In this document: positions 23,154 to 62,030 of the stretch, in pieces
Layout: each line of letters begins with the position of its first letter
Numbering within the stretch: the stretch's first letter is position 1
Assembly: GCA_965263035.1 (NCBI GenBank)
Contig: OZ253580.1
Span: 3,008,001 to 3,072,000, forward strand
Direction: 5' to 3'
DNA: 64,000 nucleotides
Origin: Acidobacteriota bacterium
GTDB lineage: Bacteria; Acidobacteriota; UBA6911; RPQK01; JAJDTT01
The notes under the pieces: model-generated
What the model saw: only the letters and a program-made list of their open reading frames with translations
The model's database searches: none
Told to the model about the DNA's origin: nothing
Program-made: the position numbers and the translations under genes

Positions 23154-24068
23154 ATGAAACCGAATGACGCGCACTGCCATTTCTTTTCCCGGAACTTTAT
23201 CCGGACGCTGGCTGGTGAGAGAGGAATCCGGGGGGACGACCCCGTGGGCGATGCATGCCGAATTCTGGCATGGGATCCGCCCGGCTCCAACGGAGAGTTG
23301 GCTGACCGTTGGGTCGCGGAGTTGGATCGCCACCAGGTCGGCCGGGCGGCGATCATCGCCAGTGTCCCGGAAGACGAAGAATCTGTGGCGGCGGCCCTGG
23401 ACCGGCATCCGGGGCGCTTTGTCGGCTTCTTCATGGTGGACCCGACGCGGCGGGCGGCCGCGGAACGGGTGACCCGGTCGGTCACGGAGCTGGGGCTCCG
23501 CTGTGCCTGCCTGTTCCCCGGGATGCACGGGTATGAGCTCTCGGACCCGCGGGTGCTTCGCCTGGTGGAGCGGTTGGCGTCCGTGCCCGGCACGGCGCTA
23601 TTCGTTCATTGCGGTGTACTGACGGTCGGGGCCAGGAAGAAGCTGGGACTACCGGCCCGATTCGACCTCAGATATTCCAATCCTCTCAACGTTCATCCGT
23701 TGGCGCTGGCCTATCCCGATCTGCCGTTCATTCTCCCTCATTTTGGGGCCGGGATGTTCCGCGAAGCCCTGATGCTGGGAGATCTATGTCCCAATGTCCA
23801 TCTGGACACGTCCAGCTCCAATTCCTGGATTCGATACTCCGGGCTGACCCTGGAGCAGGTCTTCGCCCGCTCTCTCGAGATCCTGGGTCCGGACCGGATT
23901 CTGTTTGGAACCGACTCTTCATTCTTTCCGCGGGGCTGGCAAAGCTCGCTCTGGGAAGAGCAGTCTCGGATCTTGAAGCACGTCGGCTTGGACCGGGCCA
24001 GCCGCCGCAAGATTCAGTCCGCCAACTTCGAGCGGCTCTTCCCCGTCAAAGATTCCCCAGCAGTCTGA
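23154..24068 (+). CDS. Amidohydrolase-family protein
   Basis: DAHCH, FVHCG, PHFG, LFGTDS. Confidence 0.87.
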   Translation: MKPNDAHCHFFSRNFIRTLAGERGIRGDDPVGDACRILAWDPPGSNGELADRWVAELDRHQVGRAAIIASVPEDEESVAAALDRHPGRFVGFFMVDPTRRAAAERVTRSVTELGLRCACLFPGMHGYELSDPRVLRLVERLASVPGTALFVHCGVLTVGARKKLGLPARFDLRYSNPLNVHPLALAYPDLPFILPHFGAGMFREALMLGDLCPNVHLDTSSSNSWIRYSGLTLEQVFARSLEILGPDRILFGTDSSFFPRGWQSSLWEEQSRILKHVGLDRASRRKIQSANFERLFPVKDSPAV

Positions 24069-24510
24069 GCAGAAACGCTCTGGCCCGGTCGTAAACGCCG
24101 GGACTGGAGCTCTCCCTGGGACCGGCCACGTTCAGAACCTGGATCCGGTGCCGCCGGATCCATTCCATGGCCGGTTCGGTTCCGAATTCCTGGTCCAGAT
24201 CAACCCGCCGGCATGGCCTTCCTCGCCGCCGGGCTCGGTCCCAGGTGAGCCGGGTGCCGCCGTCCACTCGGGTCCGGAACAGGATGAGAGTCCCGTTCGA
24301 ATCTCGAACGTTCCAGTCGGTTCTCTGGTCGTATCGACAAAGAGGCGTCTCCCGGAGCGGATAGCAGTCATCGAGAGGACCGTCCTCGGCGCGGCGGTCC
24401 CTCGGGCACCAGCCGCCGCAATCGAGCGATAGCTCCAGAGCCACGTCCAGAGCCGCGCGGTCGACTCCCGTTTGTCCTCCCGAGACGATGCGATTCGGTC
24501 GGCCTTCCAC
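24046..24510 (-). CDS. Putative molybdenum cofactor carrier protein
   Basis: IVSGGQTGVDRAALD, GGWCP, RTxWNVRDS, LNVAGPRES. Confidence 0.87.
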   Translation of the reverse strand: MEGRPNRIVSGGQTGVDRAALDVALELSLDCGGWCPRDRRAEDGPLDDCYPLRETPLCRYDQRTDWNVRDSNGTLILFRTRVDGGTRLTWDRARRRGRPCRRVDLDQEFGTEPAMEWIRRHRIQVLNVAGPRESSSPGVYDRARAFLLRLLGNL

Positions 24511-24835
24511 GTTGCGCCTGCGCTCTCGTACACCGGGTCACGCACCGGTTCGAATGGATCGACGATACTATCCGCGACACCTCAACCTGCCATCCGCCCC
24601 GGGCTTCCCCGAATACCACCGGAGGATGTCGAGTATACGCGCGAGCGTCCGCCAGCCCGGCGATATCGAATCCGCAGTGTTTCTCGGACTCCATTTCGGA
24701 TGTGAAGTGTGTCCGGAAATGGCCTCGTCAATTTTTTGTCAGGGGTCCAAGAAGAAAAAATCGGAATTTAAAACAACCATATCGGTATAATTCAGTCTTA
24801 CGAAGATGCTCCTGAAAAAACTGCGAGGATGGGTT

Positions 24836-24942
24836 TGTGGGGCGATTTCAAGGGCATGTGGACAAGGTGTGGATAAATTGTGACTGTGTGAGCCATAAGT
24901 GAAGTTACAATTGCGGATAGGGGTTTGCAGCCGAAATCCACA
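24836..24942. promoter_or_regulatory. Cluster of DnaA-box-like 9-mers
   Basis: Perfect TGTGGATAA at 24868-24876, TGTGGACAA at 24857-24865, TGCGGATAG at 24912-24920, inverted AAATCCACA at 24934-24942, in locally AT-rich DNA. Confidence 0.5.
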
Positions 24943-24976
24943 AGAAAAAAGCTCAAATTCTTGGTGAAATTTCTGG

Positions 24977-25004
24977 TTGAGCGGTTCCGAGAAAGGCATA
25001 AAAT
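24977..25004 (+). promoter_or_regulatory. Sigma70-like promoter for the candidate large RNA
   Basis: TTGAGC-16 bp-TAAAAT; predicted +1 about 25011-25012. Confidence 0.55.
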
Positions 25005-25011
25005 CGTCCTC

Positions 25012-25478
25012 GTCCCAAGGGGTAGACGCAAGTTGGCCCCGAGGCGGCGCCGGTCGCAAGCGGTTGATCCAGCTCCAGGGTTTCGGCCTTGAAGGTGGGG
25101 AGGCGGCCAGTGGCGGGCGGGCGAGTTCCTCAGCCGGTCTCGGTCGGTTGAGGGGCAAGCGCCGAAGAGGCGCGCCGGATCTGTCGGAGCCTTCGGGCGA
25201 GGGCAGCGAAGGCGGGCGTTCAGAGGCTGCTATCAGGGTTGCGGCTCCAGGGCGGCGGGTTGCTTCGGATTGGCGTGAACCGGTGTTACCGGTGATCCTC
25301 AATGAAGGACGGTCCCCCTGGAGAGGAGTGGAAGTCGTCAGGGGCAAGGGCAGGTTCCTTCGGGAGCTTGGCTGAACATGGCGGCAGATGCTCCACTTGG
25401 GGGCGCGGAAACTGGCCCCACTCGGGTCGGGAGAAAGTGCCTTCCGAGGCAGCGCAGCTTGCGAATATCACTTGGGAC
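25012..25478 (+). ncRNA. Candidate large structured ncRNA (~470 nt), class unknown
   Basis: Closing helix GUCCCAAG/CUUGGGAC, several UUCG/GCAA-capped hairpins with G-U pairs, upstream promoter, downstream T-run. Confidence 0.55.
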
Positions 25479-25657
25479 ACTTTTTTTCTTCCGGGCGCTC
25501 ATTCCCAGCCACCACGGGTTCCTTCCCGCGCAGTGAGTGTTTACTTGCTGCGGGCCATTCCAATCTTTTTCCGGCGTCGCCGATAGCGTGATCGTTGGAT
25601 CTCCCGCGACGGATTCGGGGTATATTACGGTTTCTTGAAATTGGGCGAGATGACGGT

Positions 25658-27040
25658 GTGATCGTACTCAAGTTCGGTGGGACGTCAGTTCAAGACACGG
25701 ACGCGGTGACGCGGGCAGTCCAGGTCATTCGGCGCCAATTGTCCCGGGGGGAGGTCGTGGTCTTGTCCGCCATGGGCAAGAGCACCAATGGACTGCTGGA
25801 GATGGCTCGAACCGCCTTGTCCGGGGATATCGATTCCGCCTGGTCGATACGGGATCAGTTGTCGGGGTTGCACCGGACGGTGGCACGTGAGCTCCTCCCG
25901 GGCCGCCGATGGAAGAGTGTGGAATCGTCGCTGGCTGCCCTCTTCCAGGAGATGACCGATATCGTTCAGGGACTCCATCTGCTGGGGGAGACCAGTCCCC
26001 GGAGCATGGACCGTGTCGCCTCCTTCGGCGAACGTTTGAGCACGCTGATTTTCTTTGAAGTCCTCCGGGAGAACGGAATCCCCGCCGAGCTGGTGGACTC
26101 GCGAGATCTGATCCGAACCGATGACCACTTCACGAAGGCCGCCGTCTTGCAGGAGCTCACCCGGAGTTGCATCCGGGAACAGCTCCTGCCCCGGCTGCGG
26201 GCGGGAAAAGTGATCGTCGCGCCGGGATTCATCGGCTCCACAGTCGACGGGGTCACGACCACCATCGGGCGGGGAGGGTCCGATTACACGGCCTCCCTGA
26301 TCGGAGCCGCGCTGGATGCCGAGGATATCCAGATCTGGACCGATGTTCCGGGCGTTCTCACCGCAGACCCCCGCATCGCTCCGGACGCCTACAAGATTCG
26401 CGCCATCTCCTTTGCGGAAGCAGCCGAGTTGGCCTACTTCGGGGCCAAGGTGCTCCATCCCAGCACGCTGACGCCGGCCATCAACCGCGACATCCCCGTG
26501 CATGTCTGCAACTCCAGGCAGATCGACGAGCCGGGAACCTTCATTTCCGCGGCCCCCGTCTCCTCCTCCAGTCCCATCAAGTCCATTGCCTGCAAGCGGG
26601 GCATCACCATCGTCAACATCCTGTCCACCCAGATGCTGCTCTCCTATGGCTTCCTGCGCGGGATCTTCGAGGTGTTCGAGACTCACGAAACGGTGGTGGA
26701 CGTGGTGGCCACTTCCGAGGTCAACGTCTCCCTGACGGTCGATTCCTCGCAGGAGCTGGAGGCGATCTGCAGCGATCTGGCGGAGTTCGGCGAGGTCCGG
26801 GTGGCGCCCGACATGGCCATCATCTGCACCGTGGGCGAGGATGTGAAGGAAACCCCGGGGATCGCGGCGCGGATCTTCGGGGCTCTGGAGGGAATCAACG
26901 TTCAAATGATCTCCCAGGGCGCGTCCCGTATCAACATGACATTTCTGGTTGCGGAAGAGACAATGGAAGAGGCCGTCCGGCTGCTCCACAATGAGTTTTT
27001 CCGGCAGCCGGACCCGGAGTTGTTCGAGCCCGTCAAGTAA
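25658..27040 (+). CDS. lysC: Aspartate kinase
   Basis: VLKFGGTSV, GRGGSD, WTDVPG, GAKVLHP, two ACT domains. Confidence 0.95.
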   Translation: MIVLKFGGTSVQDTDAVTRAVQVIRRQLSRGEVVVLSAMGKSTNGLLEMARTALSGDIDSAWSIRDQLSGLHRTVARELLPGRRWKSVESSLAALFQEMTDIVQGLHLLGETSPRSMDRVASFGERLSTLIFFEVLRENGIPAELVDSRDLIRTDDHFTKAAVLQELTRSCIREQLLPRLRAGKVIVAPGFIGSTVDGVTTTIGRGGSDYTASLIGAALDAEDIQIWTDVPGVLTADPRIAPDAYKIRAISFAEAAELAYFGAKVLHPSTLTPAINRDIPVHVCNSRQIDEPGTFISAAPVSSSSPIKSIACKRGITIVNILSTQMLLSYGFLRGIFEVFETHETVVDVVATSEVNVSLTVDSSQELEAICSDLAEFGEVRVAPDMAIICTVGEDVKETPGIAARIFGALEGINVQMISQGASRINMTFLVAEETMEEAVRLLHNEFFRQPDPELFEPVK

Positions 27041-34189: not shown

Positions 34190-34262
34190 GCCGGGGTAGC
34201 TCAGTCGGTAGAGCAGGGGACTGAAAATCCCCGTGTCGGCGGTTCGATTCCGTCCCCCGGCA
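34190..34262 (+). tRNA. tRNA-Phe(GAA), CCA not encoded
   Basis: GCCGGGG/CCCCGGC acceptor stem, D-arm, CTGAAAA anticodon loop, GGTTCGATTCC T-arm. Confidence 0.97.
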
Positions 34263-58874: not shown

Positions 58875-59516
58875 GTGCGCCAGGCTAACTGGCACAAGAT
58901 AGGCGGTGAAAGTCCGCTGAAACGAAGGACTAACCATCCACGTTTCTCCGCGAGCCGTGCGTGGGCACCCGTGAGGGTGTCGGCGAAGCGTCGGTAGCGG
59001 TGCGTATGGGCAGGCTATTGAGCATCGAAAGCTCCCTGATCGGAAGTGCCGAGGCTGTAGTCGCGGTCGAAGGCAACACCGGCTGGACCGCCAGGGTGAG
59101 GGGCAGCCGGGCTCTGCGGTGTCAAAGAACCCATGCACGTACGTACATCTGGTGTCGGGACCTGGGAGGGCTTACTCTCTCCCCGGCGAAAGCCGGGGCC
59201 TTGTGGGAAAGGGGAAAGCCGTAACCCATGAGGGGAGAGAGGAAGCAATCGGATTCACCCATAGTAGTGATGAAGCGGGCGAACAAGGAGGGGGAACTCT
59301 CTGCGGAGTCGGTGGAGCGAAGGGGTGGAACCAAGGGGAATTCGGCTCACCAAAGTACGGACCGGACTCAGAGCCGGGCTACCGTGACACAGGCGGGGGT
59401 CGGATACGGCGGGCGTCGCGACCTGCCGTCATTACCTGAGGTAGGAGCCGTGTGCCTTAACGGGCACGCACGGATCTGCGCGGGGGGCGCTGGGCAACCG
59501 GCGTCCCTACCGCGAC
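58875..59516 (+). mobile_element. ORF-less group II intron (IIB-like, 642 nt)
   Basis: 5' GTGCG; domain V GAGCCGTGTGCC-TTAAC-GGGCACGCACGGATC; 3' CCCTACCGCGAC; EBS1 AGUCGC (59059-59064) complementary to exon GCGACT (58869-58874). Confidence 0.9.
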
Positions 59517-59948
59517 TTCTTGTCGCCTGCTCTTCTGTACTGCCATGCAATTCCGTGGCCGGAATGTGTAGAGTGGGGACTCCGTCCCCCCTGCCCCCCT
59601 AACCGGCGGCAAGAAAGCCGCCGCTCGTGCGCCCGACATGGGCTGTATCTAAGGGATGAAAGATCCCAAGGGAGGTGATGGGACCAACCCTAGCCGAACC
59701 GCAAGGCGTAGCCGCGAGGTGAAGCTGAAGGAAGCGGAAGGCAAACCCACGACCGCAGGAACACGAACCGGCAGCGAGGCCGGGTGCGGGCGGTGAGCTG
59801 GCGAGCAACAGCGAAACCCGAACCCCATCCAGACGTACCAGGTAGAGCCGGGCGGCCCGGGGGGAAAGATGCAGCACCTTACTCGGGGAGTGGAGTTGAC
59901 CCGCTTTCGTGGACACATCCAAAGTAGGGGAGTAAGGAGGGATCCACG

Positions 59949-60263
59949 ATGGCAAGAAAGCAGAGACGGTATCCGCCGGAGTTCCGGCGGGAGATCGTAG
60001 GGCTGGTGCGCTCGGGGCGATCGCCGGAGGCACTGGCGCGGGAGTTCGAGCCCTCGGCTTCGGCGATCCGGAAGTGGGTCAAGCAGGCCGATCTGGACGA
60101 GGGGCACCGGAGCGACGGGTTGACGAAGTTCGAGCGCCAGGAGTTGCGTCAGGCGAGGCGGGAGATCAAGCGCCTGCGGATGGAGCGGGACATCCTAAAA
60201 AAAGCCGCGGCTTGGTTCGCCCGGGAGAGCGACTCGATCCCAGGAAAGGATTCGAGTTCGTAA
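59949..60263 (+). CDS. IS3 transposase OrfA
   Basis: RRYPPEFR HTH, LRMERDILKKAAAWFA; A7G slippery site 60197-60204. Confidence 0.93.
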   Translation: MARKQRRYPPEFRREIVGLVRSGRSPEALAREFEPSASAIRKWVKQADLDEGHRSDGLTKFERQELRQARREIKRLRMERDILKKAAAWFARESDSIPGKDSSS

Positions 60264-61102
60264 AGGCGCACCGGGCCCAGTTTCCGATTCGGGTGATGTG
60301 CCGCGTGTTGGGTCTCTCCCCCAGTGGGTACTACGCCTGGTTGAAACGTCTGCCCTCGAACCGGGCTCGCCAGGACCAGGCGCTTCGGGAAAAGATCGTG
60401 CAGATCTGGAACGAGAACCGGAGAGTTTACGGTCGGCCTCGTCTGCATGCCGAACTGAGAGCTCGAGGGGAACGGACGAGCCCGAAGCGTGTGGGCCGAT
60501 TGATGCGGGAAGCGGGAATTCAGGGGGTGAGCCGGAGGCACCGGAAGGCCGGGCTCACCCGGAGGGACCGGAAGGCGCGTCCCGCACCGGACCTGGTGAA
60601 CCGGAACTTCGCGGCTGAGGGACCGGATCAGCTCTGGGTGGCGGACCTGACGTATGTTCGCACGCAGGCGGGCTGGTTGTATGTGGCCGTGGTCCTGGAC
60701 GCCTGGAGCCGAATGGTCGTGGGCTGGGCAATGGAGACCCATCTGCGGTCCGAACTGGTCGAGAATGCGCTCGCCATGGCGGTGATACGGCGACAGCCGA
60801 AGCAGGTGATCCACCACTCGGACCAGGGGGCACAATACACCTCGACGGCCTTCGGGAAGAGATGCCGGGAGGCCGGGGTGCGGCCGTCGATGGGCTCGGT
60901 GGGGGACGCTTACGACAACGCGATGTGCGAGAGCTTCTTCGCGACGCTGGAATGCGAGTTGCTGGACCGTCACCAGTTCCGGAATCCGAATCAGGCGAGG
61001 CGGACCGTCTTCGACTTCATTGAGGGATTCTACAACCGGCGCCGCCGACACTCGGCGCTGGGCTACGAGTCGCCGGTCCGCTACGAGCAGCAGGCAGCGT
61101 AG
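60203..61102 (+). CDS. IS3 transposase OrfB (DDE), reached by -1 frameshift
   Basis: WVADLTY, HHSDQGAQY, DNAMCESFF, YNRRRRHSALGY. Confidence 0.93.
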   Translation, partial: SRGLVRPGERLDPRKGFEFVKAHRAQFPIRVMCRVLGLSPSGYYAWLKRLPSNRARQDQALREKIVQIWNENRRVYGRPRLHAELRARGERTSPKRVGRLMREAGIQGVSRRHRKAGLTRRDRKARPAPDLVNRNFAAEGPDQLWVADLTYVRTQAGWLYVAVVLDAWSRMVVGWAMETHLRSELVENALAMAVIRRQPKQVIHHSDQGAQYTSTAFGKRCREAGVRPSMGSVGDAYDNAMCESFFATLECELLDRHQFRNPNQARRTVFDFIEGFYNRRRRHSALGYESPVRYEQQAA

Positions 61103-62030
61103 GACCCACGGCGTCGTCGAAACTCGATCCGGACGACGAGATCCTCGATTCGTGCTCTCGCCGAGTGCAGTGATGACCTGCTGGGGTCGTCTTTCCTGCC
61201 TCCAATGCCGGTCCTGCGGGCCGGGAGGCTCAGAAGGACTGACGCCGCCTCACGAACCGGTTCGTTTTCGCGCTGCTCGACCACGAAGCCAGCACCATCA
61301 CCGTCGCACCAAGCGTCGCGCGCGACACGATTGAAGAGGGCAGGGGGGCGCTGCCCCCCTGAGACCCCCGGATGCAAAGAGATACACACCACTCTTAAAT
61401 CCCTGGAAAGAAAGCGCCGAGGCCCCCTCGTTACGCGGTATCCCATTGTGGAAAATCAGAGATTTCCCACAACGTGAGCCCTTTTGCTGACGCCTCCATC
61501 AGTCCCCCCACAGAAGAAAGAACGCTCTGTCAATGGTCAAAACCCTGACATTTTCTATGGCCATTGACATTCAGCGGGAGGAAGTCTTGCTCCCCAACGA
61601 CAGAAGGAGTATTACAACCTAGACCAACGTAAACCGCACTAATAAACCGTCCACGAAAACGGGACACCTTCAGAGAGCCTTTGAGAAGTCAGCAGAGGTC
61701 ATAGTAGCGAAGAAGCCGGATAATGCCGGTGGAGCGAAGGACCGAAGGAGTCGGACGGGCCCTATGGTGGACTCGTCAGCGGGATCGCAAATACCTCCGA
61801 AAACGGGGCGGGGGGAGGCCCCTCGGACCCGGCACGGAAGGCCCAAGGGTGGAACCCGTCAAGCCGGAAGGGCGGAGATCAAGTCCCAGCGGCGGCGAAA
61901 ACCGGAAAGAAAGGCCCTTTACGAGGCTCGAAAGAGCCTCGAGTGACTCCAACCGCCGGATACTGAAAACGGTACGTCCGGTGGTGTGGGAGGGTGCAGG
62001 GGCGCAATCCCCTGCGCCCGACCCGATCTT

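Follow-up and report, generated by a model that had tools for sequence, protein, structure and literature searches.

We propose that positions 25012–25478 of the plus strand of a 64,000-nucleotide (nt) window, which is the whole stretch of DNA analyzed here and comes from an Acidobacteriota genome (G000; one contig, 6.2 Mb, 97% complete), encode a large structured RNA of 467 nt that runs from GUCCC to GGGAC. In our judgment, it is very probable that an undescribed family of real, abundant structured RNAs, with a promoter and a terminator of their own, is represented here. The fuller proposal, in which this independent and abundant large noncoding RNA acts in trans as a scaffold or regulator recognized through an invariant terminal stem, is the one we favor on balance, with considerably less assurance. 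The region had been picked out in a first-pass annotation, made from the letters of the window, as an independent large noncoding RNA of an unrecognized class, and this assignment is now supported by the lack of an Rfam match, by covariation and by expression.

Transcript boundaries, fold and expression

The RNA gene lies downstream of a promoter-like sequence (Table 1) that is the sole sigma-70-like site found between 24400 and 25900 by a promoter scan accepting spacers of 16–18 nt only (one site found, 0.3 expected). Seven nt separate the end of the −10 element from G25012, and this geometry, with a (c)TTG.. −35 element and a TAnAnT −10 element ending 7 nt before the first G, is kept in 22 of 22 diverse homologous loci, with additional loci within the order showing the same arrangement. 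The A/T-rich tract directly 5′ of the −35 element would serve as an UP element. In many lineages, a TGCACA-N5-TGTGCA inverted repeat or a TGTGCR half-site is found upstream of the −35 element, some 55–75 nt before the RNA start (for example at 1997–2013 on the minus strand of locus L126, and in L047, L048 and L054). It is not present in the genus of the window and may be a transcription-factor operator.

The first eight nucleotides of the RNA are fully complementary to the last eight, and the resulting closing helix, termed P1, would form with the T-run behind it a putative intrinsic terminator, consisting of 8 bp with five G-C pairs, 2 nt and U7. The "loop" of this terminator is the entire RNA, so the terminator scan makes no call, and the 3′ strand of P1 and the U-tract are where we infer that transcription terminates. 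Both the promoter, with a start at about 25012, and the perfect closing helix had been predicted in the first-pass annotation and both hold up, the former in its spacing across the 22 loci and the latter in all 76 unique sequences discussed below. The T7 that it had placed straight after the helix is also present, but a 2-nt AC spacer separates the two. In L074, L100, L153 and other loci, GUCC(C), the same letters as the 5′ end of the RNA, directly follows the U-tract, and hence the GGGAC of a read-through transcript could pair with either copy.

The RNA is present in four metatranscriptome runs (X15–X18) from two studies, the contigs of which were compared with the window over 24300–26300; as these are assembled contigs, depths are rough and ends approximate. 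The summed contig depth over 25037–25505 is 2e4–6e5 in X15 and X16 and 7e2–4.7e3 in X17 and X18, versus 3–44 for the flanking genes, which places the RNA at about 100 to 10,000 times its neighbors across the four runs. The contigs end at 25471–25480 and most begin at 25028–25040. Of the discrete transcript anticipated by the first-pass annotation, the 3′ stop is borne out by both studies, in which the RNA is highly abundant, but the exact 5′ end is not, with one contig beginning as far upstream as 24688.

The predicted fold has a minimum free energy of −245.2 kcal/mol on the plus strand (z −4.62), and none of 100 dinucleotide shuffles is as stable, versus a z of −0.27 and 38 of 100 shuffles as stable for the reverse complement. 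The fold is thus a property of the plus strand alone, in keeping with the earlier argument that several stems use G-U pairs that work only on the plus strand. We aligned 21 sequences of five lineages with MAFFT and computed a consensus fold with RNAalifold, which contains 95 pairs in 16 helices. At least one compensatory double change is seen in 53 of the 95 pairs, versus 32.8 in shuffles and 20–27 in slid controls, in which the 3′ partners were moved by 1–3 columns. The proportion of cells that are paired is 92.7%, compared to 83.0% in shuffles and 38–52% in the slid controls, and on all five measures 0 of 500 shuffles match the observed value.

In architecture, the RNA consists of a long terminal stem that opens to a multi-branched interior with 5′, central and 3′ domains. 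Many of its hairpins are UUCG-capped, including those at about 25190–25199 and 25354–25369 in addition to the one listed in Table 1, and further hairpins are found at 25160–25174 and 25280–25294. The stem of the 3′ domain encloses the sequence GAAAC (25408–25412), which is at least 90% conserved among 31 sequences, and a covarying hairpin (25412–25418 with 25424–25430). The UUCG hairpins, the 11-bp stem and the hairpins at 25159–25173 and 25279–25293 of the first-pass annotation are all present within 1 nt, and most of them are found again in the consensus fold. Hairpins that were gained or lost account for the threefold range in length across the family.

To the idea that the region is not an RNA gene at all, and is instead a coding region or a chance GC-rich intergenic fold, we attach hardly any weight. 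Open reading frames of 132 (plus strand) and 202 (minus strand) amino acids do overlap the region; neither has a Pfam match, and 1-nt insertions and deletions among close homologues disrupt their frames. The protein-coding reading was rejected on these grounds, and the first-pass annotation had likewise considered the frames to be unlike proteins. Covariation and expression refute this alternative in both of its forms, and the strand-specific stability and the conserved promoter and terminator also speak against it.

Table 1. Positions in the window of the RNA gene, its structural elements and the neighboring genes.
Feature	Position	Strand	Evidence or remark
A/T-rich tract, UP-element-like, directly 5′ of −35	24942–24976	+	T-rich tract in the same place in 22/22 diverse homologous loci
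Promoter: −35 TTGAGC (24977–24982), 16-nt spacer, −10 TAAAAT (24999–25004)	24977–25004	+	Promoter scan and conservation
RNA gene	25012–25478	+	Strand-specific fold, 76 unique homologues, covariation, metatranscriptome depth
P1, 5′ strand GUCCCAAG	25012–25019	+	Partner 25471–25478; 8 pairs in 76/76 unique sequences
G9, opposite A25470	25020	+	G.A 64, A.A 7, G.U 4, G.G 1 of 76; covarying position: C25039, third C in CCCC
P1b, 5′ strand GGUA	25021–25024	+	Partner UAUC 25466–25469; positions 10–13 paired in 76, 76, 76 and 75 of 76; alternatively within H5
Tandem purine-purine mismatches G14 A15	25025–25026	+	Opposite A A 25464–25465
P2, 5′ strand	25027–25032	+	Partner 25458–25463; helix 1 of the consensus; covarying
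G-CCCC: 3′ strand of H5 (pairs with G9–U12) and start of P3	25036–25040	+	Alternative pairing
P3, 5′ strand, closes the 5′ domain	25037–25048	+	Partner 25226–25237; helix 2: 10 pairs, 4 changed on both sides, 94.8% of cells paired
UUCG-capped hairpin	25077–25090	+	Helix 4: 5 pairs, 4 with compensatory changes
Long hairpin	25127–25154	+	Helix 5: 10 pairs, 6 with compensatory changes
Central domain, nested helices 7–11	25245–25325	+	19 pairs, 13 with compensatory changes
3′ domain: stem 25399–25406/25437–25444	25399–25444	+	Helices 15 and 16: 15 pairs, 11 with compensatory changes
P1, 3′ strand CUUGGGAC, presumed intrinsic-terminator stem with the U-tract	25471–25478	+	Contigs of the RNA runs end at 25471–25480
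U-tract T7, 2 nt (AC) after P1	25481–25487	+	T-run after GGGAC plus 0–2 nt in 76/76 unique homologues
cpYpsA/SLOG gene (circularly permuted YpsA), upstream neighbor	24046–24510	−	Pfam 3.6e-55
lysC (aspartokinase), conserved downstream neighbor, outside the RNA	25595–27040	+	Pfam AA_kinase 8e-49 and ACT domains

Distribution and comparison with known RNA families

Among 41 relatives searched by BLAST, full-length matches with 86–93% identity are found in eight of eight genomes of the same genus, and in the sister genus g2 (six of six genomes) and in two further families the match is limited to both ends, which are 400–480 nt apart. The family hallmark is the pair of ends, 5′ GUCCCAAG(G/A)GGU and 3′ AUC(A/U)CUUGGG(A/G)C, which form P1 and the helix P1b, together with tandem purine mismatches, a covarying helix P2, the promoter and the U-tract. 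An exact-pattern scan for the 3′ end and U-tract, using one genome per GTDB species, returned 36 loci, of which 34 are in records labeled Acidobacteriota or Acidobacteria, one is in a record labeled "Aminicenantes" and one, in a record labeled "Gammaproteobacteria", is a chance match lacking the 5′ motif. The same type of scan gave 19 loci in metagenomes, two of them by chance, and no match in viral contigs. Across the phylum it identified 11 of 401 genomes, all in the same order, with no match for a reversed-pattern control, a count that understates the distribution.

The covariance model R1, which covers the last ~106 nt on the basis of the 3′ domain and leans on the invariant 3′ strand, detects the RNA in 62 of the 76 genomes of the order, in 43 of its 52 high-quality genomes and in 14 of its 16 families. 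The counts are 0/1 each for families f15 and f4, 7/16 for f6 and 7/10 for f14, and the entry for family f3 rests on a genome (G016) that is flagged as unpublished. Those weak matches that were re-checked, including the weakest seven, all carry the 5′ motif 150–900 nt upstream. For the other orders of the class, 61 genomes gave no match to R1, although relatives with different ends could escape the model, and other classes of the phylum were covered by the exact-pattern scan only. There are 76 unique full-length homologues, of 242–718 nt. The RNA family is specific to one order of the Acidobacteriota and nearly universal within that order. Two checks proposed in the first-pass annotation, for homologues with covariation and for a fold more stable than shuffles, both bear out its reading.

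By R1, each genome has a single copy of the RNA, as does the genome of the window; the exceptions, with two copies, are genus g2, G007 and G040, the second match of G040 being weak (E 0.002). A phage or mobile origin was considered and rejected on the basis of the single genomic copy and the lack of viral matches. The genomes of genus g2 (~5.7–9.5 Mb) contain two paralogues of the RNA with identical ends and diverged interiors (for example the pairs L010/L021, L011/L019, L012/L020, L013/L022 and L023/L015), of which one precedes asd and the other has a convergent PPDK-like gene as its neighbor. Three further loci (L041, L090 and L102) contain the 3′ third of the RNA type of the second paralogue, g2b, with no 5′ motif within 900 nt. 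Just upstream is a T-rich stretch followed by CTTGAC, which resembles the family promoter, and these may be truncated or re-promoted copies. In family f14, three genomes of 1.9–2.5 Mb that are 93–98% complete (G027 and G265, both of genus g15 and of 2.4–2.5 Mb, and G423) have no R1 match, and all seven members of the same genus with genomes of 5.1–6.7 Mb have one.

None of the 4227 models of Rfam 15, which include OLE, GOLLD, ROOL, raiA, HEARO, T-box, Lysine and Acido-1, has a match at gathering score over 24977–25487. At E ≤ 10 over 24850–25650 there are four chance-level matches of 9.6–17.9 bits, far from their cut-offs of 39.5–47; two precede the RNA, a third covers a hairpin of 14 nt and the fourth is on the opposite strand. 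The literature search found no description of this RNA, the motif lists in the supplements of PMC2864571, PMC8632094 and PMC11109978 being outside its reach; in the main texts of PMC8632094 and PMC11109978, counts of occurrence give no mention of Acidobacteria. With neither an Rfam match nor a published description found, we rate it as a new RNA class. Over the whole window, the Rfam gathering thresholds return a tRNA at 34190 and three domains of a group II intron (58.9–61.7 kb), the latter being D1–D4 domain matches of 165.4, 81.4 and 43.6 bits at 58909–61742 (plus strand), ~34 kb downstream of the RNA.

A place for the RNA in one of the known abundant classes, as a divergent Y RNA, 6S or Ms1 RNA, CsrB-type RNA, RNase P RNA, tmRNA or SRP RNA, is a very remote prospect and is largely refuted, although its purine-rich linkers and, as noted below, its abundance, synteny and ends recall some of these. 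The first-pass annotation had noted that the hallmarks of RNase P, tmRNA and SRP RNA are absent, and the genome indeed encodes RNase P RNA (262.9 bits), tmRNA (181.1 bits) and small SRP RNA (66.7 bits) elsewhere, all above the cut-offs. A 6S identity is likewise ruled out because the sole 6S match in the genome is at C1:4068054–4068231 (56.6 bits, above the Rfam cut-off), not at the locus of the RNA, and because both the predicted and the consensus fold are branched, unlike the 6S rod with its central bubble. A CsrB/RsmZ-type sponge was rejected since there is no CsrA/RsmA gene in the genome (no match to CsrA, PF02599, the control for which detects those of Escherichia coli, Bacillus subtilis and Thermotoga maritima). 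Mimicry of rRNA was also considered, as the first 10–12 nt seemed to resemble a stretch of domain V of 23S rRNA, and was rejected as the organism's own 23S rRNA shares only 7 nt there.

The closest parallels are to Y RNA, to 6S and Ms1 RNAs, to OLE and similar RNAs and, as discussed further below, to amino-acid operon leaders. The termini are reminiscent of the Ro-binding stem of Y RNA, in that a variable interior is closed by a terminal stem that is invariant, contains a purine left unpaired or mismatched, and is followed by a 3′ U-tail. The genome, however, has no TROVE/Rsr gene (PF05731; the control detects those of Deinococcus and Bacteroides thetaiotaomicron) and no match to the Y_RNA model (RF00019) at E ≤ 10, and the RNA, at 467 nt and 242–718 nt across the family, is three to seven times larger than the ~100 nt of a Y RNA, so that this identity was rejected. 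The RNA is similar to 6S and Ms1 RNAs as an abundant stand-alone RNA with paired 5′ and 3′ ends and synteny with a downstream metabolic gene (PMC2848244, PMC9130861), and differs from them also in being two to four times longer. It is also similar to OLE, GOLLD, ROOL and raiA in being large, multi-domain, strongly covarying, confined to one lineage and highly expressed. OLE is described in PMC9723947 as an RNA of ~600 nt in a ribonucleoprotein, the protein of which recognizes a non-canonical kink-turn element. Unlike this group, the RNA has no match in Rfam 15, is hosted by a different phylum, has no conserved adjacent gene for a partner protein at the loci seen, and is most conserved in its terminal stem rather than in its interior.

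Terminal stem and the competing hairpin H5

The terminal stem was analyzed in the 76 unique sequences by pairing positions by index from both ends. P1 (positions 1–8) is paired in every sequence and the sole variation is at pair 2 (U-A in 67, U-G in 9). It is followed by the mismatch at position 9 and by P1b (Table 1), in which pair 13 covaries (A-U 59, G-C 16, A-C 1). The tandem mismatches beyond P1b are also maintained, with G.A in 48 and A.A in 25 sequences at position 14 (Watson-Crick in two of 76) and A.A in 53 and A.G in 19 at position 15 (Watson-Crick in none of 76). P2 covaries extensively: pair 17 is GC in 53, AU in 14 and GU in 5 sequences, and pair 18 is CG in 55, AU in 8 and GC in 4, among others. 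The terminal stem is thus near-invariant although the length of the RNA varies from 242 to 718 nt, and a helix that is unchanged on both strands amid a strongly changing molecule suggests sequence-specific recognition, a double constraint, or the two together.

This pattern also bears on a protein-free role, in which the RNA would be a large ribozyme of a new kind or would assemble by itself to an RNA-only complex in the manner of GOLLD, ROOL and OLE, a reading that we hold to be distinctly improbable. A size of 242–718 nt, multiple domains, many covarying helices, a near-universal presence in one order and a very high abundance would all fit such a role, and homo-oligomers are possible for large ornate bacterial RNAs, as discussed in PMC12286853. 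For a catalytic core, however, the most conserved nucleotides would be expected at internal junctions, and in this family conservation instead peaks in the terminal helix. Self-complementary conserved loops were not seen either, with no search aimed at them.

The GCAA-capped hairpin at 25019–25040, termed H5, was proposed in the first-pass annotation and stands as a local alternative, in competition with P1b and P2, two long-range helices that covary. H5 is formed by G9–U12 with a G/A-CCC run at about nt 25–29, and since H5 and P1b both use nt 10–12 (25021–25023) they cannot coexist. Among the seven sequences with A9, six have U at the third pyrimidine of the run, and one of the A9/U sequences (L139) differs at exactly these two positions from six sisters of the same genus that have G9 and CCCC. 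In minimum-free-energy folds, the P3 partner of the third pyrimidine is the same in L139 and in one of the same-genus sisters (L145). One covarying pair supports each of H5 and P1b. This second pairing may reflect an intermediate of folding, a tertiary contact of G9 that resembles a pseudoknot, or a genuine switch.

Linkage to aspartate-pathway genes and proposed mode of action

In the window, the RNA is followed by lysC, the true start of which is likely near 25659. The context of the family was assessed by tblastn with LysC, Asd, DapB and DapA on oriented loci, of which 46 are unique and have at least 1 kb of downstream flank. In 27 of these, asd, lysC, dapB or dapA is downstream on the same strand. 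In genus g1 it is lysC in 10 of 10 loci, 63–147 nt away; in g2a, the first g2 paralogue, it is asd in five of five (234–399 nt); in family f7 it is asd in nine of nine, including L089 (100–1042 nt); and in two loci of family f9 (L091 and L096) lysC is ~2.3 kb away, behind a thioredoxin-NHL gene. The other 19 loci have no co-oriented asd, lysC, dapB or dapA, and these are all five g2b paralogues, L016, L042, L043, L048, L053, L063, L065, L067, L074, L093, L097 and L103, along with L017 and L098, which have just 1.5 kb of flank. Loci without a target gene (the g2 second paralogue in five of five, L043, L053, L065, L067, L074, L097 and others) keep the promoter, the ends and the fold, and in some of them the next gene is convergent. 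The linkage to asd, lysC and dap genes is old and frequent, yet dispensable for retention of the RNA.

Conservation of the upstream neighborhood, which in the window consists of the cpYpsA/SLOG gene followed by genes for an amidohydrolase and for a PP2C phosphatase, does not extend beyond the genus. A gene for an IstB-like AAA+ ATPase (Pfam 1.4e-13) is on the same strand 244–745 nt upstream of the RNA in four loci from two families (L042, L051, L074 and L049, the last with two copies). No transposase was seen at these loci, and we judge these neighbors to be coincidental.

The main rival to a trans-acting RNA is a giant leader, a cis attenuator or riboswitch-like element of the asd, lysC, dapB or dapA operon, with the closing helix serving as terminator and with H5, a bound ligand or a factor deciding between termination and read-through. 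With lysine riboswitches and other amino-acid operon leaders (T-box, attenuators) the RNA shares a co-oriented position 5′ of such genes, which it has in many lineages, an end in a stem and a U-tract, and two exclusive pairings. The RNA differs from them in having no match to Lysine or a leader family, in being kept in the absence of a target gene, and in combining an invariant closing helix with an interior of threefold length range. We consider this rival unlikely, and the evidence that supports it also weighs against our own proposal. The linkage in 27 of 46 loci, which involves families f1, f3, f7 and f9, is stronger than casual synteny. In locus L047 (f3), asd starts ~48–49 nt past the U-tract, which leaves little space for a separate promoter, and the promoter scan calls none in the spacers of the window, L126 and L010. 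A contig of run X16 (4056 nt, depth 31.6) starts at 25454 and continues past the terminator into lysC. The canonical lysine riboswitch (RF00168) is unmatched in the genome of the window, with the control matching four genomes. Two mutually exclusive covarying helices, such as H5 and P1b, typify riboswitch-like switches.

Two further points concern the transcript itself. A contig of run X15 (24688–25173, 486 nt, depth 3,821, five strain differences) spans 324 nt 5′ of the proposed +1, and as a result the 5′ end at G25012 rests on the conservation of the promoter and not on reads. No such upstream cover is present in X16–X18, and the X15 contig may represent an extended precursor, a different transcript or strain variation. 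The depth of contigs, moreover, is a rough measure of abundance only.

Several lines of evidence nevertheless argue against attenuation. A cis-regulatory leader should always have a co-oriented regulated gene downstream, and 19 of the 46 loci do not, even allowing for the two with a short flank; several of the 19 face a convergent gene, yet their ends, promoter and fold are fully conserved. The genomes of these loci have a single copy of the RNA, so their lysine operon has none. A sequence-invariant P1 around an interior of threefold variable length is the reverse of what is generally known of riboswitches. From our reading of the sequences, the spacers also contain promoter-like blocks: those of f7 have a conserved TTGACA...TGnTATGGT block with a 19-nt spacer, which is beyond the 16–18 range of the scan, and those of g1 have a conserved block with TATATT just before lysC, the terminator-side stretch being variable. 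In addition, the depth of the RNA is 100 to 10,000 times that of lysC. Trans action is favored because the RNA remains intact in the absence of a cis target, because one copy per genome suffices, and because of the synteny that is documented for 6S and Ms1 RNAs. The trans-acting 6S RNA is reported as co-transcribed with ygfA in a conserved arrangement (ssrS-ygfA; PMC2848244), and Ms1 RNA is reported to maintain synteny with a HAD hydrolase gene (PMC9130861).

We therefore favor a trans-acting RNA in which the following would occur. Transcription from the conserved strong sigma-70-type promoter would start at G25012, and the RNA would fold to a multi-domain structure with UUCG-capped hairpins. 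The structure would be closed by the long terminal stem, in the order P1 (8 bp), G.A mismatch, P1b (4 bp), tandem purine mismatches and P2, with the 3′ strand of P1 and the U-tract acting as an intrinsic terminator. The product would be a stable scaffold or regulator, for which the near-invariant terminal stem with its non-canonical purine pairs may be the recognition platform of a protein or RNA partner, with the size-variable interior supplying a compact fold. The exchange between H5 and P1b would reflect either an intermediate of co-transcriptional folding or a functional switch. The position 5′ of asd, lysC, dapB or dapA would be inherited synteny, as for 6S RNA with ygfA, and not the purpose of the RNA. 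As a bolder possibility that we consider rather unlikely, the RNA could be the order-specific RNA subunit of a ribonucleoprotein, or an RNA-only machine (a ribozyme or an assembly), of housekeeping rank and with an abundance and conservation comparable to those of 6S, RNase P or OLE RNA, in which the bistable H5/P1b element couples folding to the RNA's own termination and thereby to transcription that continues into the aspartate-pathway operon.

Only a few large RNAs with an elaborate structure are known from bacteria, and every one of them (RNase P, tmRNA, 6S, OLE, GOLLD/ROOL and raiA) has started its own field. The acidobacterial order that hosts the present family is almost entirely uncultured, and its biology, including sponge symbiosis, is poorly known. 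By the rough measure of contig depth in the two metatranscriptome studies, the RNA is among the most abundant transcripts of the sponge-associated members of this order. The family provides a testable object, with a minimal form of 242 nt, an invariant terminal stem and a covarying two-state element, as well as a clean marker for the order, including its sponge symbionts. If the link to asd, lysC and the dap genes is functional, the RNA would represent a new form of regulation of the synthesis of lysine and of cell-wall precursors.

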